The notes beneath the pieces are model-generated. The model worked only from the letters and a program-made list of their open reading frames with translations, did not search any database and had not been told where the DNA came from. Position numbers and translations under genes: made by a program. A stretch of DNA of 64,000 bases from positions 22,307 to 86,306 of the IMG/VR virus record IMGVR_UViG_3300042332_001215; one strand, given 5' to 3'. The DNA is from a virus. Positions 19,501 to 56,330 of this stretch are shown piece by piece (position 1 is the stretch's first letter; each line of letters opens with the position of its first letter).

Positions 19501-22500
19501 AGTATTGATAGTATCAGTTGATTGGGTAGTAGCTCTATAAGGATTATCTGCATTTGCTAGAAGATTTAGATTTTTCTTAGCTGCTACGATAAATGCTTCA
19601 TCAGTGGCAAAGTTGGTCTCTGCATCAAATCCTGAAGTTAGTAAGCCATAGTTTAAAATAACAGAGTTGATACCCATATTATAATTGTCATCAAAATTAC
19701 CAATATCTTCTGGTACAAATTCAATTAGATAGAATCTAGTAGTTGCTTTACCAAATAGTGACTTGAATCCATTAGGGAAGTATGGAAGTGAAACCGCAGT
19801 TTCTTCATTTTGTGTGGAACTATACTGGAATTGTGCAGCAGATTGTCTTCCATACCAAGTAGCAAATGGATATTCAGCTTTTGGAGTTACTGTAATTGAA
19901 GTTCCAGATGGAATAAGTTCAGTATGATTAATGTTTGTTCCCTTCGCATTCTTGATAGTAATTGTGGTATTTGTTCCATCAGTGGTAATATCAGAAATTA
20001 AAGCTTCAAAACCAATTCCACTTCCAGATAGCTTTTGACCTACTCTTATATTGTTGATGTTAGTGTCAGTATTTGCAATTCTAATAGTATTAGTTCCAGA
20101 AGTTTTCTGTTGGTTTAAAATAATTGTGAATTGATTAATTCCAACATCAAGTGGTTGAGTTGGATTGCTATCAATTACTAAGTTCACAGTACCTCTTCTA
20201 TAACCAGCAACTACACCAAAGATTTCTGGAGTATCGAAGTCTTGCTCGTCATAACCATACTTGTCTCCGCCACCATTTAGAGTGTATGATGAAGGCATGA
20301 ACTGAGTTCTATAATATATACCCAGATTAAAGACAAGAGTTACAAACTCATCTCCATCAACATTTGCAAACTTAATAGTATAATCAGTGGAGTTTGAATA
20401 GTTTGATGGTAATACTAGATCTTCAGCCTTGTTTTGCTTGAAGTCATTATCGCTGGTATATAATGCACAAGTGTATGTTAGAGTTTCTACACCTGTAGAT
20501 TCATTCTTATTATAAATTCTGCTTAGAACTTTTGTTTCTTGATCATCTGCACCAAAATACAGTGTAGTACCAGGAATTACATATTCTTTTAGCCAACCAA
20601 ACTTAATTAGATTTGATGGAGTTCCAGTCGCATCAGTGAAGTTAGATGATGTAAATGTGAATTCAATGAATCTTGCGTTGGAACTAGTTGCAGTATTTGT
20701 GACTCCTGCTACAGTTAGTACTTCATCATTTCTAATTTTGAATGAAATGCCTGCCTTTCCAGCTGCGACTGTACCATTTGCAGTAAATGATAGTCTGCCA
20801 TCTGTTGGGAAGTTAGTTTGCTTCTTGACATACCAAGCTTTTCTAACATCTCTTCTAGCTCTTTGAATGAATGGATCACTGCTATAGCTACTATCAAGAA
20901 TTTCATTGACAGTAATTGCCTCATTTAATCCTAGGAAGTTTACATTAGAAATCTTGACACCACCATTAAATTGTGGATAACCATCAGTAGTAATATAAAG
21001 TCTATCAGTTCTTTGTACATACTGTGGGGTATAATGAATAGTTTTATAGAAGTTTACACTATCAGCTCTCTTGGTTAGATCATTTGAATATCCACCAATT
21101 TTTCCTGCAGAAGTATTTGCAGTCTCTTTACCATAAGCTTCATTTGTTCTTTCAATACCACTACCATTGATCTTGATTACAGGAGTAAATTTATGACGGC
21201 TACCATCACTTTCATTTAGTTTATAATATCCTGGTTTAAATAGTAGTTCAACTTCATCAGATGATGTAAATCCAATCTTATTGCAATATTGTGAAATTTG
21301 ACCGAAGCTTGTGAGTGGGGCAAACTTCTTAATTGCTTGCCTGGTTTGTAAGTTAATACCTAAAGCTTTTGATGTAATTGGGTTTGGCACATTATTATTA
21401 ATGTACTCATCATTCACTGTAGATACAAATGGAATTGGCTTCTCATATGGAGTAAATAGAGTTGCACTCTCAAGATCTACATCCTCAGTAATTTGATCTG
21501 TGCTTGGAATAAATGGACCTTCAGCCGCCCATCTGTCGGCATAAGTTACAGAAGTGCTACAGCCAGCAAAGAAAATAGTTGTTCCATTTGGATATGTGCT
21601 GGATGACAATTGCTGATCGGAACTAAATCCAGTTACCTTTCTAATAGCGTTAATTCCATTGTTCTTATAGTATACAAATGTACTATAGTAAACAGTTGTG
21701 TTTACTTTATATCTTAGTACAACAGCTCCCCTATCTGGAAGTTTATTATAAAAATCACTTGCAGTATTTACAGGAATTATCTGTGGAGTGGTTTCATTAA
21801 TAGTTGAGGAAATATTAAATGTATTATTAATAGTTCCTTTTAGGAACTTAGAATCAAATAAAACTCCGTCACTTACAATTCCCTCATTGGATTCAACAAC
21901 TCCATTTCTATTTGGATCGTAGTCAAATGGTGATGACCAATTTGCTACAACTGCTTTATGAGTTCCTGTTGGGAGAATATTGCTGATATATGTAGATAAT
22001 GTATTTGATCCTAGTTTATTTTGATTTGATTTAAATGTGACGGTGTTATTTGTGTAGTCAATAGTATCATATTCAAGTGTTATTGAGATAGATGGATTTA
22101 GATATTGTCTAGCTCCATTTAGAACATAATAAGCATCTTGACTTACTGCCTTCATGGTCATTTCGATATCAATCTTTCCATTTGATGGAATGCCAACTGT
22201 ATCGACAACTTTAATTTGAGATGTTGAAGTAGTTAGTCCAACAGAGCTTGTAGATCCAGAATCTGGAGTTGATAGTGCAGTTCTGTTTAGTGATGAAACA
22301 TAAATTCTGTTGTTGTCAAGATTGATATTTGAAGCAGAAACTAGCTGCCTCTTGAGTCTCCAAGCATCAAGGAATTTAGGTGATACATAGAGTCTATCAT
22401 TAGTATCAGTTGAAATGAAACCAGTTTTTTCTGGTTTTGCACCCTTAGTGAAGCCAAATCCATCTGGGCTACCTTCTGGGAACTTTTCTCCATTTGCAAT

Positions 22501-51857: not shown

Positions 51858-52013
51858 CTATTTAGTCTCAGCTTGATATTTGTGTTTTAATTCATTGACA
51901 ATCATAATTGATTTTTTCAATCCAAGTGCATACTCATTGTGTCCATGCTTGACGGAAATTTGTATGCTGTGTTGAATTCGTTCACATAGTTCTTTGTAAA
52001 ATTGTTCATCCAT
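51858..52013 (-). CDS. Small hypothetical protein (51 aa)
   Basis: Manually translated MDEQFYKELCERIQHSIQ...AETK*. Confidence 0.5.
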   Translation of the reverse strand: MDEQFYKELCERIQHSIQISVKHGHNEYALGLKKSIMIVNELKHKYQAETK

Positions 52014-52030
52014 AATGTAATTGTGAACAA

Positions 52031-52117
52031 CGGAGGGAGGGGGAGTCGAACCCCCAAGGGCTTTAACACCTCAACTGTTTTCAAGACAGGTTCCGTCGCC
52101 AATCGGATTGCCCCTCC
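52031..52117 (-). tRNA. tRNA-Ser(TGA)
   Basis: GGAGGGG acceptor, anticodon loop CTTGAAA, long variable arm, T-loop TTCGACT, G discriminator. Confidence 0.92.
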
Positions 52118-52148
52118 AAAAAAGTAACCAAAGGTTACTTATTATATA

Positions 52149-52379
52149 TCAAGAATTTGATTGAGTCCTAGCGTCCATTTGCCTTACAGCATGAATAGGA
52201 CTCTTCATGTATCGTTTAATTTTCTTCAATTGTCTATTCAATTGTTTCAAATGTTCTAAATCTCGTTTGATCTCTGCAGGACTTTTAATCTTGTCTTCAT
52301 TCAAACTAATCTCTGGAGTTAGAACTGTTTCTTCTTCAACTACTTCAGTTGATTCAACATCAATAATTTGTTCTTCCAT
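52149..52379 (-). CDS. Hypothetical protein
   Basis: 76-aa ORF. Confidence 0.6.
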   Translation of the reverse strand: MEEQIIDVESTEVVEEETVLTPEISLNEDKIKSPAEIKRDLEHLKQLNRQLKKIKRYMKSPIHAVRQMDARTQSNS

Positions 52380-52382
52380 AAT

Positions 52383-52745
52383 TTAACTTCTTGTTTTTAA
52401 ATACTCTACTGCCTTATATAGGCCACTAAGATTATCTCCAAGATTTCCTAATCCAACATTACATGGATCGCAAATCCATCCACGAAACTTTCCAGTTTTA
52501 TGACAGTGATCAAGGACAATCTTTTTGTTATGTGGGGGTATCTTTCCACACAAATCACATACATCTGGTTTTGGTGGTGCAGTTTTTTTCAATTGATACC
52601 GAAGTTTACTTTGTTCACTAATACATGTTCTACACCTAGTATCATGCCTATCCTTATGTCCACGATGTCCAGGAAACTCAGATAGTTTTTTTGTTTCATT
52701 ACAATAGACACATGATTTAGTGTTTAGTTCATCAATAATCTCCAT
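52383..52745 (-). CDS. Free-standing endonuclease VII-family homing endonuclease (F-CphI-like), copy B
   Basis: CVYC...CRTC zinc finger plus CDLC...LDHCHKTGKFRGWICDPCNVGLG...D; start placed downstream of the early promoter at 52775-52802. Confidence 0.85.
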   Translation of the reverse strand: MEIIDELNTKSCVYCNETKKLSEFPGHRGHKDRHDTRCRTCISEQSKLRYQLKKTAPPKPDVCDLCGKIPPHNKKIVLDHCHKTGKFRGWICDPCNVGLGNLGDNLSGLYKAVEYLKTRS

Positions 52746-52810
52746 AGGCACCGGAGGCTTTGGTTGCTCTAGCATCATAGCATGGTTTTCAGGGCTTGTC
52801 AAGTCATGGA

Positions 52811-52836
52811 TAAAAAAAGAGACCCTTTCGGGTCCC
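52811..52836 (-). terminator. Rho-independent terminator after the stranded psbA 3' end
   Basis: GGGACCC-GAAA-GGGTCTC plus T run. Confidence 0.85.
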
Positions 52837-52857
52837 TGAAAACTTATAAAGTTTTTA

Positions 52858-52917
52858 TCAACCGATGGCTGGTGCAGTGAGAGCAACAGGAGTGCTGTCA
52901 GCAGCAGCTAGATCAAG
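52858..52917 (-). pseudogene. psbA: Stranded duplicate psbA 3' end ([19 protein letters not shown])
   Basis: 20 codons homologous to D1 residues 341-359; directly after the GIY-YIG gene stop and followed by its own terminator. Confidence 0.92.
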
Positions 52918-52930
52918 AAAAAAGTTCTTT

Positions 52931-53830
52931 TCAATTGTTAATTGAATAATAATTTGTTTGATCAAAATTATGTTTATTCAGTTTTTTAATTGCAATTAAA
53001 TTATTTTTCTCTAAAGTTTTAACCGCTCTATTTACTGTCTTTTCACTAATTTTACATTCTTCTTTAAAATCAGACATAGATATTCTCAAAAATTTATTAC
53101 CATTATACTCAATCAATTTTTCACTTTCACTTTCTATATTAGATTTAATATAATTAAAGAGAACTAATATAGATCTTTTAGATACCGATCCATTTCTGCT
53201 TTCTATTTTTACATCTATGTGATTATTATCACATTTATATTTTAATATAAAATCTTTTTTGATTAGTTCTATCTCATCACTTGTTTTTTTAGTTATATTG
53301 TAATAATACCACCCACAAGTAGTTGGAGTTTTTGAACCTCTTTGTTTCTTTTTTCTTATTGCTTCATATGGAATATTTTTACTCTTACAAAATTTATCAA
53401 ACCCATCATCAACAATATAAGATTCTCCAGTTATATTAACTACCAAATATTTTTTTAAGTTAGGATTTCCATTTTTCTCAATATATGTTTTCATTCTTTT
53501 GGATATATCTTTTTTTCTGGGTTCGGATAACTTAAATCCACTAAATCCTTCTCCTCCATTAGTAAGATTTAACAAGATACCATTATTAACATCCTTTCTT
53601 CCAAAAACAAAAATTAGATATTTTTCATTCTTAAAAGCGTCGTCTTCAGTAAGATTATCTTTCAATATAAGAACTCTATTTTTGGGAGGAACTGGAACCG
53701 AATGTTTCCCATAAAATGCCCTATGATATTTTCTATAATTTTTATTTTTAGATAATTTATGTTTTCCTTTTCCAATATAATAAGGTGTTCCATTTTCACG
53801 AAGATATGCATAAGTATAAAAATCATTCAT
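52931..53830 (-). CDS. Free-standing GIY-YIG-type (Seg-like) homing endonuclease with C-terminal winged-helix domain
   Basis: FYTYAYLRENGTPYYIGKG...R...E..LI..FGRK....G.L.NLTNGGEG; C-terminal HTH ISEKTVNRAVKTLEKNNLI; strongly AT-rich. Confidence 0.8.
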   Translation of the reverse strand: MNDFYTYAYLRENGTPYYIGKGKHKLSKNKNYRKYHRAFYGKHSVPVPPKNRVLILKDNLTEDDAFKNEKYLIFVFGRKDVNNGILLNLTNGGEGFSGFKLSEPRKKDISKRMKTYIEKNGNPNLKKYLVVNITGESYIVDDGFDKFCKSKNIPYEAIRKKKQRGSKTPTTCGWYYYNITKKTSDEIELIKKDFILKYKCDNNHIDVKIESRNGSVSKRSILVLFNYIKSNIESESEKLIEYNGNKFLRISMSDFKEECKISEKTVNRAVKTLEKNNLIAIKKLNKHNFDQTNYYSINN

Positions 53831-54251
53831 AATTTTTCAAATACTCAATCATTTTTTCAAGGGTGTTAATATTATCCCCAACAAGACCTAAAGCAGTATT
53901 GCAGTGGTGACATAGAAGTTTTCTTACTTTACCTGTGGTGTGGCAGTGATCAACACATAACTTCTTCCACTTACCATTTCCTTCATTATTGCAAATAGCA
54001 CATCGACCATTTTGTTCCTCGTACATTTTAGTGTGCTCATCCAGAGTTATGCCATATATTCTCTTTAAATCATTATTTTTGGTGCGTTCTGGATTTGCTT
54101 GATGTCGTGCCTTTACCCTTGCTTTATCACACTCTTTGCAGGCAGAATGTCTTCTACCAGTTTTTTTATCCCGTATATAAAACTCTATGATCTGTTTTTC
54201 AATCCCACAGGTCATACAAATTCTATACAAATCGGAGTATAGTTTAGTCAT
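53823..54251 (-). CDS. Free-standing endonuclease VII-family homing endonuclease (F-CphI-like), copy A
   Basis: CMTC...CKEC, LKR.YGIT...Y..Q..RCAIC...LCVDHCHTTGKVRKLLCHHCNTALG...D; immediately downstream of psbA. Confidence 0.9.
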   Translation of the reverse strand: MTKLYSDLYRICMTCGIEKQIIEFYIRDKKTGRRHSACKECDKARVKARHQANPERTKNNDLKRIYGITLDEHTKMYEEQNGRCAICNNEGNGKWKKLCVDHCHTTGKVRKLLCHHCNTALGLVGDNINTLEKMIEYLKNYE

Positions 54252-54275
54252 TTCATGCTTTCTTTCGTGCTTAAT

Positions 54276-54283
54276 TATTTATA
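54276..54283 (-). promoter_or_regulatory. T4-type late promoter for the EndoVII/GIY-YIG cassette
   Basis: TATAAATA immediately after the psbA terminator. Confidence 0.75.
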
Positions 54284-54311
54284 AAAAAAAGAAACTCCGA
54301 AGAGTTTCTTT
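54283..54311 (-). terminator. psbA terminator
   Basis: AAAGAAACTC-TTCG-GAGTTTCTTT plus T run. Confidence 0.85.
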
Positions 54312-54317
54312 GGTGAA

Positions 54318-56330
54318 TTAACCGATTGCGGGAGCAGTGAGAGCAACAGGAGTTGCTTCTACGCTAGCAAGGTCAAGAGGGAAATTATGGGCATTCTTTT
54401 AACCCTCTTGAAATCTGGTATTGCTACCAGGATTGGACTATATCATCACCATTTCTGGTGTCGGAAGCTCTAGCCTGTTATTAAGGAAACTTTATTCCTC
54501 AGGTAGTCTCTGAACCTTTCCAGAGTGTACTCTGGACTTGGCTGCTGATTGCCCTCTTGGGGTTTCCAGCAATTCATCCGATTTAAAGAGCGCAACACCC
54601 AAATCTACGCTCATGCATAACTTCCATACCCAGACCACCACGATTCAGAATGTCTGCCCATGTATTAATTACATGACCCTGACTATCTTGAATTGATTGG
54701 TTGAAGTTGAAGCCGTTCAGGTTGAACGCCATGGTTGACACGCCCAGAGCAGTGAACCAAATACCGACAACAGGCCAAGCTGCCAAGAAAAAGTGAAGAC
54801 TACGAGAGTTATTAAAACTAGCGTACTGAAAAATAAGGCGGCCAAAATATCCATGAGCAGCTACAATGTTGTAGGTTTCTTCTTCTTGTCCAAACTTGTA
54901 TCCGTAGTTCTGGGACTCATTTTCTGTCGTCTCACGAACAAGACTAGAGGTGACGAGAGATCCGTGCATAGCAGAGAAAAGAGAACCACCGAAGACACCA
55001 GCAACTCCCAGCATATGGAAAGGGTGCATAAGAATGTTGTGTTCCGCCTGGAAAACAAGCATGTAGTTGAAAGTTCCTGAAATCCCCAGAGGCATTGCAT
55101 CAGAGAAGGATCCTTGACCGAAGGGATAGACCAGGAAAACTGCACTAGCAGCAGCAACGGGTGCAGAGTAGGCAACACAAATCCAAGGACGCATACCCAG
55201 TCGGTAAGATAGTTCCCATTCACGACCCATGTAGGCATAGATACCAATTAGAAAGTGGAAGACGACCAATTGAAATGGTCCACCATTATATAGCCACTCA
55301 TCGAGAGAAGCAGCTTCCCAAATAGGATAGAAGTGCAGACCGATAGCATTGCTAGAAGGAACAACAGCACCAGAGATGATGTTGTTTCCATACATTAGAG
55401 AACCAGCAACTGGTTCTCGGATCCCGTCTCTTATCCCAGTAAAACAGTCATATCTTGCGACTTAGACCGTTTCAGTTGACCTATTTGATTTGCTCGTTTT
55501 GCGTTTTCTACTCTTCCACCATTTTCTACCCACTCTTTCCACTCATTAATATAAGAAATACATTCTTTAATTCTTTCACTTCTTCTATTTCCCATATGGG
55601 GAAGTATTTTTTCCAAAATGAAAAGAACTTTTTCTCTATTTCCTATATGAAGGACATAGACTGGTTTTCCTTTGAGTGTTTTTCTATTGGGTACAAAATA
55701 GGGTTTGTCTACAAAATTACTTAGTTTAGCAACCACATCTTCATCAGTCATAACAAGACGAATATATGGTGCTGGTGGTGCTTTAGAAGAGTCATAACGG
55801 TCTTTAGAACGATTATCTATTCCAAAGTATCCTTCACCTTCTAAAATTCCCGCAATCCAAGTAATTTGTGATTCCGTTAAATCGAGCATTTTGTTTTCGC
55901 ACCTACTGTTATATTTATACAACAAGTGCGAATAAAAGTCAACTGTGAGATTTGGACTATATCTTCACCCTTTAATTAGATTAAAGGGGCTGGGCACTCT
56001 AGCCTGTTATTAAGGGGACTAAACCCCTCAGGTAGTCTCTGAACCTTTCCAAAGTGTACTTTGGACTTGGCTGCTGATTGCCTTTCGGTTTCCAGCAATT
56101 CACCCAGTTTTAACATCATCCTTACGGATGAAGGACACAGATTAAAGCAGTATGTCTACGGGAGGAGCAGCAATGAAAGCAACAATGAAACAAATAGTAG
56201 CAGCGAGAAGGGTTGGAATCATTAGAGTTCCGAACCAACCGACATAAAGACGATTATCGGTAGAAGTTACCCACTCACAGAATTGTTCCCAAGTGTTACT
56301 TCCACGCTGTTGAGCGATGGATGCGGTCAT
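54318..56330 (-). CDS. psbA: Photosystem II D1 protein, 3 exons: 56330-56152, 55429-54607, 54395-54318 (359 aa after splicing)
   Basis: Exons of 179+823+78 nt join in frame: PPVDI|DGIREP and MHER|[10 protein letters not shown]; canonical D1 sequence with Glu130. Confidence 0.97.
54396..54606 (-). mobile_element. Group I intron 2 of psbA (211 nt, ORF-less), between codons 334 and 335
   Basis: Exon ends in U; P1 GAGCGU/GCGCUC with a U.G pair; P AATTGCTGGAAA, Q AATCAGCAGCC, R GTTCAGAGACTA, S GATATAGTCC; terminal G. Confidence 0.93.
55431..55889 (-). CDS. Intron-encoded single-motif LAGLIDADG homing endonuclease
   Basis: [14 protein letters not shown] (LAGLIDADG helix), I.L.MTDEDVV; located 3' of the S element; stop codon is 1 nt before the omega-G. 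Confidence 0.85.
55896..55932 (-). promoter_or_regulatory. Late promoter inside an RBS-sequestering hairpin for the intron ORF
   Basis: TTCGCACTT-GTTGTA-TAAA-TATAAC..AGGTGCGAA; TATAAATA at 55912-55919 forms the apex, and AGGTG lies in the 3' arm. Confidence 0.7.

Follow-up and report, generated by a model that had tools for sequence, protein, structure and literature searches.

The DNA considered here (the window) comprises 64,000 nucleotides (nt) of the IMG/VR record IMGVR_UViG_3300042332_001215 (positions 22,307 to 86,306), part of an 86-kb contig of a T4-like cyanophage, and its matches are almost confined to lake and freshwater metagenomes. On its minus strand lies psbA, the gene of the D1 protein, which is interrupted by two group I introns and followed by two genes for endonuclease VII-like proteins (EndoVII A and EndoVII B), with a GIY-YIG-like open reading frame (ORF) and a second, displaced copy of the psbA 3' end between them. 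The locus thus holds two D1 C-terminal ends, the functional tail A and the stranded tail B, and it is probably the scar of a one-sided (illegitimate) homing event. All the elements that the original prediction, made from the sequence alone, had named in this arrangement are present. In the direction of transcription they are, with their neighbours in psbA and on the resident side:

No coordinates assigned, minus strand: psbA exon 1, upstream of the ORF-bearing group I intron
55429-56149, minus strand: psbA intron 1, ORF-bearing, group I (Rfam, 85 bits)
54607-55428, minus strand: psbA exon 2, D1 residues ~61-334 (translation matches D1)
54396-54606, minus strand: psbA intron 2, ORF-less, group I, 211 nt, between Arg334 and Asn335 (Rfam RF00028, 81.3 bits, E=3.6e-20)
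54318-54395, minus strand: psbA exon 3, the functional tail A, 25 amino acids (aa)
54288-54311, minus strand: intrinsic terminator A of psbA (terminator scan)
54276-54283, minus strand: T4-type late promoter box TATAAATA (read from the sequence)
53823-54251, minus strand: EndoVII A, 142 aa, F-CphI orthologue (Pfam PF02945 Endonuclease_7, E=1.5e-25)
52931-53830, minus strand: GIY-YIG-like ORF, 299 aa (motifs and weak fold match)
52858-52926, minus strand: stranded psbA tail B, 69 nt, codons 338-359 and stop
52818-52837, minus strand: resident terminator B
52774-52802, minus strand: sigma70-type promoter of EndoVII B (TTGACA-17-TATGAT with TG, 11 of 12 positions)
52383-52745, minus strand: EndoVII B, 120 aa, DHHRN-type (Pfam PF02945, E=4.5e-17)
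52149-52379, minus strand: orf76, marker of the right flank

EndoVII A starts 67 nt past the psbA stop, behind a box that has the T4 late-promoter consensus, and its own stop overlaps the start of the GIY-YIG-like ORF (ATGAATGA). The stop of the latter is followed by 4 nt and then by psbA codon 338. The tail B remnant has no start codon of its own, is out of frame with respect to the upstream ORF, lacks codons 335-337 and carries a Pro340 to Phe change. The statement that the two tails differ in amino acids only after Ala344 therefore holds for the LDLA sequence, but not for the remnant as a whole. A 20-mer is exactly common to the two tails, with two copies in the window and none in shuffled sequence. 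Behind EndoVII B, orf76 is found in all related loci; family searches with it gave no match.

The state of the locus without the additional genes is found in five related IMG/VR loci (L004, L005, L006, L009 and L013), in which psbA has no intron at 334/335, ends in a tail of the B type and is directly followed by copies of EndoVII B (79-97% identical) and by orf76. Contigs of four independent lake metagenomes were also placed on the window, and one contig, from X4, joins position 54606 to position 52918, skipping 1687 nt, with the two sides separated by 16 nt (ACGCTCACAACTTCCC). Its sequence, ...GAGCGT AACGCTCACAACTTCCC TCTTGATCTAGCT..., is that of an intron-less psbA which leads into tail B. 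An empty allele of this very structure had been predicted. Intron 2 and EndoVII A are both missing from L004, L009, L013 and the X4 empty contig. In the same X4 run, the empty contig has a depth of 32.8 as compared with about 17-22 for the filled form, so that both alleles, empty and filled, are present together in a single lake.

The window is collinear with L004 from the beginning of the remnant onwards (52926..51900 with 5838..6864 of L004, 92.8% identity), and over 52866-52746, where the remainder of the tail, the terminator and the promoter lie, identity to L004 is 100%, from which it follows that tail B is resident DNA. Terminator B and the sigma70-type promoter are identical in the empty alleles of L004, L005 and L006. 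The filled form is the derived one, because its conversion into the empty form would require a precise loss of the intron, the return of codons 335-337, which the remnant lacks, and a source for the four synonymous differences that separate functional exon 3 from the empty allele within the first 17 nt; the same three features exclude that the empty allele arose from the filled one by deletion. Thus, as had been proposed, the nuclease genes came with a new D1 tail into an allele of the psbA-tail B-EndoVII B type and stranded the old tail.

The difference between the filled and the empty allele is a block of 1680-1687 bp (~1.68 kb), the left end of which coincides exactly with the S-PM2-type intron insertion site, while its right end lies 4 nt past the stop of the GIY-YIG-like ORF. 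The block is therefore not the ~1.4-kb non-intron element originally envisaged: it starts with a group I intron, which the span assigned to the cassette (52383-54395) had omitted. The intron at 54396-54606 and EndoVII A are both present here, and the empty alleles have neither; this makes the block the known F-CphI/intron collaborative-homing unit together with a GIY-YIG-like passenger. Intron 2 is 91-96% identical to introns beside F-CphI genes in many IMG/VR loci, and the match to cyanophage S-PM2 is collinear from exon 2 through the intron and the tail to the EndoVII A gene, at the same position after psbA. At its right junction the window enters tail B at codons 338-341, at a distance of 9-20 nt on the 3' side of the intron site and still upstream of the CtpA site. 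This places the junction in the part that encodes mature D1 and speaks against the proposal that the disposable D1 extension served as a neutral landing zone. On the left, exon 2 is continuous with that of the empty alleles; on the right, the junction is non-homologous, and recipient DNA is kept from the break onwards. Tail A and the tail of the empty allele are 77.6% identical at the DNA level. Exon 2 is 97-100% identical to that of L008; with respect to the empty allele of L004, identity is 97-100% over the first ~570 nt and becomes patchy (63-90%) past position 54860.

The remnant departs from the X4 empty allele only by three C-to-T changes next to each other at the junction (TTCCCT to TTTTTT, 52918-52922, giving Pro340Phe), which could reflect break-associated damage or donor-derived sequence at a microhomology.

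EndoVII A is 75% identical to S-PM2 F-CphI at the amino acid level (~81% at the DNA level) and 30% identical to EndoVII B. In an alignment with S-PM2 F-CphI, both proteins keep C84, D101, H102, H104, R110 and N118 (F-CphI numbering), and C84, D101, H102, R110 and N118 were found to be essential in F-CphI by mutagenesis (PMC6083498). From their sequences, both are predicted to be homing endonucleases of the DHHRN (F-CphI/Endo VII-motif) family. EndoVII B, which accompanies the empty alleles, is the older resident nuclease gene and the second beside EndoVII A.

The assignment of the middle ORF is less direct. Its N-terminal region contains the motifs YTY(5-7)-x10-YIG(18-20), with Glu69 and Asn88 invariant and Arg33 nearly so among 33 relatives, and its C-terminal region contains a predicted DNA-binding winged helix (Z~9). 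With a model of the N-terminal domain (predicted local distance difference test score, pLDDT, 71), the nine best Foldseek hits were all GIY-YIG domains of UvrC (E 0.03-0.12, best probability 0.97), and VIA-align gave Z values of 5.6 for PD-T4-3, 5.1 for UvrC, 4.5 for I-TevI and 3.7 for T4 EndoII. A fold search with the whole protein picked up the C-terminal winged helix alone, profile searches for a GIY-YIG domain in Pfam, NCBIfam and the PDB were negative or below threshold, and relatives of the ORF gave only weak matches to LEM-3 GIY-YIG. The GIY-YIG label first given to this gene is thus based on motifs and a weak fold match, not on Pfam; the product may be described as GIY-YIG-like and as a candidate free-standing endonuclease. 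The protein is recorded on 2 contigs (P0001), and its closest relative beyond this genome is P0002 (93%). More distant relatives (50-58% in the N-terminal domain) are encoded directly behind psbD or psbA in L027, L111, L149, L024, L028 and L030, and in some relatives NUMOD3 DNA-binding repeats replace the winged helix.

Stranded tails were found to recur. Among 187 loci screened for a second D1 C-terminal motif, at least four further cases were detected, each of them behind a gene of the F-CphI family:

L011: third EndoVII type, the C-terminus of which is fused in frame to ...AATDATPVALPAPTK and stop
L103 (element shared with L174-L178): F-CphI-like gene, truncated and fused to ...AAAESTPVALVAPSVG and stop
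L123: remnant and terminator behind intron, tail, F-CphI and a 239-aa ORF
L185: remnant behind an F-CphI-like gene and another, different GIY-YIG-like ORF; intron absent

These four remnants all begin at codons 341-342 (CTGGATCT, TGATCTT, ATCTT and ATCTC). As tails, nucleases and passenger genes differ from one to the next, the events were independent. The clustering of the remnant starts is best explained if the break point is fixed, 9-24 nt on the 3' side of the intron site; random duplication and selection for short repeats were also considered, and neither accounts for it. In GenBank cyanophages (505 records, 506 places), a second psbA tail is nearly absent.

The L103-type element (L103:9603-9965, and L174-L178) is an N-terminally truncated F-CphI-like/D1-extension fusion that lies ~5.5 kb downstream of psbA in six contigs, and about a dozen ORFs, including transaldolase-like and GIY-YIG-like genes, are found between psbA and the fusion.

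From this anatomy we infer both the nuclease that made the cut and the pathway by which the break was repaired. The recipient phage would have had an intron-less psbA with tail B at its end and, behind it, terminator B, a promoter and EndoVII B. In a co-infection, an F-CphI-type endonuclease of the donor would have cut the recipient psbA at the Arg334/Asn335 site or slightly 3' of it. On the left side, the break end would have invaded the homologous psbA of the donor, and repair synthesis would have copied the intron, the tail A exon 3, its terminator, EndoVII A and the GIY-YIG-like ORF. The right break end would have found no homology, because donor and recipient would share nothing downstream of the nuclease genes, and it would have been joined by end-joining or at a microhomology after the loss of 9-17 nt. 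Since this end would have been barely resected, tail B, its terminator and the EndoVII B promoter would have survived right behind the imported block. One-sided homing completed by illegitimate joining at microhomologies has been described for T4, as summarised from Parker et al. 1999 in PMC2988022.

The proposed sequence of events would also leave a product safe from the nuclease it had gained. F-CphI is known to cleave intron-less psbA at the insertion site, and the intron blocks cleavage, thus protecting the donor (PMC6083498, PMC10448857). Accordingly placed in the new psbA copy, the intron would split the target of EndoVII A, and the remnant would lack the left half of it. A cleavage-resistant tail supplied by the element had been suggested instead; no evidence ties immunity to the differences between the tails, and the published F-CphI site is interrupted by the intron (PMC6083498). 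Between the X4 empty allele and the central part of the validated S-BM4 substrate, a single base is different.

Five loci (L183, L185, L186, L187 and L188) combine an intron-less psbA with an F-CphI-like gene of their own, and at codons 333-341 all of them read GAGAGA followed by AACGCCCACAACTTTCC, whereas GAGCGY followed by AACGCTCACAACTTCCC is found in the X4 empty allele and in the validated S-BM4 substrate. Alleles of the former type have AGA for Arg334 and GCC for Ala336, as opposed to CGY and GCT in the cleavable substrate. Such synonymous changes of the target around Arg334 may be candidates for self-immunity without an intron, and could in part save the idea of a resistant target, although not in the tail.

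Several observations weigh against the one-sided event as formulated above. A donor contig, in which psbA, intron, tail A, EndoVII A and the GIY-YIG-like ORF would be followed by unrelated DNA, was not found; a scan of metagenome contigs, made with the GIY-YIG-like N-terminal motif only, yielded no close relatives, but generic ones with up to 61% identity. In the remnant, just 5 of the first 8 nt (AACTTTTT) agree with psbA, so that the junction may be at codon 341 rather than at codon 338. The offset of the junctions by 9-24 nt 3' of the intron site could reflect the true cut site or resection. Finally, the window version of the divergent 3' part of exon 2 is also present in L008 and in the X4 empty contig, and for this reason the 250-nt stretch that diverges from L004, which was considered as the co-conversion tract of the event, is unproven in that role.

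Of the other ways in which the locus may have arisen, the one that deserves most consideration, even if it appears rather unlikely, splits the process into two steps: F-CphI, intron and tail A would have arrived first and stranded tail B, and the GIY-YIG-like gene would have homed later into the gap, making its junction with tail B secondary. The relatives of this gene in other contexts (behind psbD in L027, L111 and L149, behind psbA in L024 and L028) imply that it moves independently, and L007 and L008 carry an F-CphI gene without the GIY-YIG-like ORF. However, L007 and L008 have no remnant and a different F-CphI allele, and are thus not the intermediate, whereas in L030 an EndoVII and a GIY gene stand in tandem and overlap in the same way, and a similar pair precedes the stranded tail of L185, both of which fit transfer of the two genes as a pair.

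A false joining of two co-occurring strains, one with psbA-tail A-EndoVII A-GIY and the other with psbA-tail B-EndoVII B, comes to mind because the window is a metagenome-assembled viral contig and both alleles occur together in at least one sample, but it is very improbable. The junction between the GIY-YIG-like ORF and tail B is crossed by contigs of independent samples and studies (X4 and X5), and a single X3 contig of 1935 nt (52791-54724) extends over the intron, the two tails and the two nuclease genes. No repeat is present at the junction, and the longest stretch that the tails share exactly is 20 nt, below assembler word length. The occurrence of the GIY-YIG-like protein on two contigs also speaks against an artefact. 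Among viral contigs the exact junction had no match, and the window's own record may be masked there. Even less credible is a tandem duplication in situ of a 'tail + terminator + EndoVII' unit followed by divergence. This unit had been said to occur twice, and its order is indeed repeated, but the copies are not duplicates nor each other's closest relatives: EndoVII A and B share 30% identity while the tails share ~78%, functional copies with 100% identity to tail B and its terminator occur in other contigs, and the empty alleles hold the B unit alone, as S-PM2-type phages hold the A unit alone. One-sided homing therefore remains the preferred explanation of the locus.

The same psbA region has been entered on other occasions, in agreement with the layered invasions that had been read from the locus. 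The backbone of L007 and L008 is 100% identical to the window through intron 1, but it holds a different F-CphI allele (73-90% DNA identity), it has no remnant, and its F-CphI gene runs with its last codons straight into the -35 box of the EndoVII B promoter. It is a second acquisition by the same backbone, with a separate illegitimate right junction. To these different F-CphI alleles and to the third EndoVII type of L011 are added an HNH gene and a small ORF. In L009:5365-6001 and L011:5364-6001, a 122-aa HNH endonuclease, with a domain resembling the HNH of IscB/Cas9 (NCBIfam, E=7e-13), and a 63-aa ORF lie between the psbA terminator and EndoVII B; in L008:4643-4831 the 63-aa ORF is present alone, without the HNH gene.

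Introns are found further upstream too. The ORF of psbA intron 1 encodes 164 aa with a LAGLIDADG-like motif and matches PHROGs phrog_5046 ('HNH endonuclease', E=2e-14), with no match in Pfam. The intron and its ORF are 100% identical in L008, and a 68% allele occupies the same site in L004, L114 and L127. In L115, L127, L129, L130, L145, L166 and L167, exon 2 is split by up to three or four more group I introns, some of them ORF-bearing, so that psbA is a multi-intron hotspot in cyanophage contigs. Beyond orf76, the window continues with one further feature:

52030-52118, minus strand: tRNA-Ser, anticodon tga (ARAGORN)

Rfam scores this tRNA marginally as tRNA-Sec (49 bits, threshold 47), a label that is probably explained by the long variable arm.

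More tentatively, and with the odds against it, the stranded D1 tails may be taken in general as natural footprints of first-time ('ectopic') invasions by cassettes of the F-CphI family. With their left borders sharply clustered at codons 338-342 in no fewer than five independent events, they would map the break point in vivo, and in wild cyanophage populations the cassettes would repeatedly overwrite the 3' end of psbA, including the D1 extension, the terminator and the downstream promoter. A Mantel-type comparison of 15 usable loci favoured neither side: r was 0.36 between exon 3 and the F-CphI gene and 0.37 between exon 3 and the rest of psbA. If the proposal were correct, endonuclease traffic, and not photosynthetic selection, would set the D1 extension allele of the phage and its 3' regulatory signals, and the retained remnant would amount to a terminator and promoter module for stacked nuclease genes.

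The first entry of genes that encode free-standing homing endonucleases into a new neighbourhood is an open point in the collaborative-homing model (PMC10448857). With a filled allele, its empty counterpart from the same lake, an exact junction and independent repeats, the present locus makes this entry step testable, and its scar, if correctly interpreted, shows in a lake cyanophage a route by which selfish nuclease genes reach new genomes. The locus also shows that some of the 3'-end variation in the most widespread phage photosynthesis gene hitch-hikes with selfish nucleases.

The ingredients of the proposed process are each known, namely F-CphI collaborative homing, illegitimate one-sided repair and the C-terminal duplications of fungal mitochondria (PMC6279837), while no description was found in the literature consulted of a natural filled/empty pair for which the junction is exactly defined, the scar recurs at one codon pair, and nucleases of three families are stacked behind psbA. 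The closest system is that of F-CphI and the psbA intron of S-PM2 (Zeng, Bonocora & Shub 2009; Fang et al. 2018, PMC6083498), with the same gene order and the same intron site; in the window there are in addition the GIY-YIG-like gene, a second, unrelated DHHRN gene behind it and the tail of the recipient, whereas S-PM2 has no stranded tail. As in laboratory one-sided repair in T4, homology is available on one side, with little or none on the other, and recipient sequence is kept beside the break. That work made use of engineered plasmid-phage crosses, whereas the events described here are natural, recurrent and segregating in lake populations, and the mobile unit consists, unlike there, of a free-standing endonuclease and an intron.

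In the intronless homing of the seg and mob genes of T4 (SegF, SegG, MobE; PMC2988022, PMC2790892), a free-standing nuclease gene also lies beside its target and flanking sequence travels with it, as the D1 tail does here, but the classical cases are clean replacements by two-sided homology, with no duplicated gene end. A duplicated end is found in the mitochondrial atp6 and cob genes of fungi such as Endoconidiophora resinifera (PMC6279837), in which a functional C-terminal end, nuclease ORFs of the GIY-YIG or LAGLIDADG type and a displaced partial copy follow each other as they do behind psbA. Kingdom, genes and nuclease families are different, and in the phage the break site is a known intron and endonuclease target for which the empty allele is at hand.

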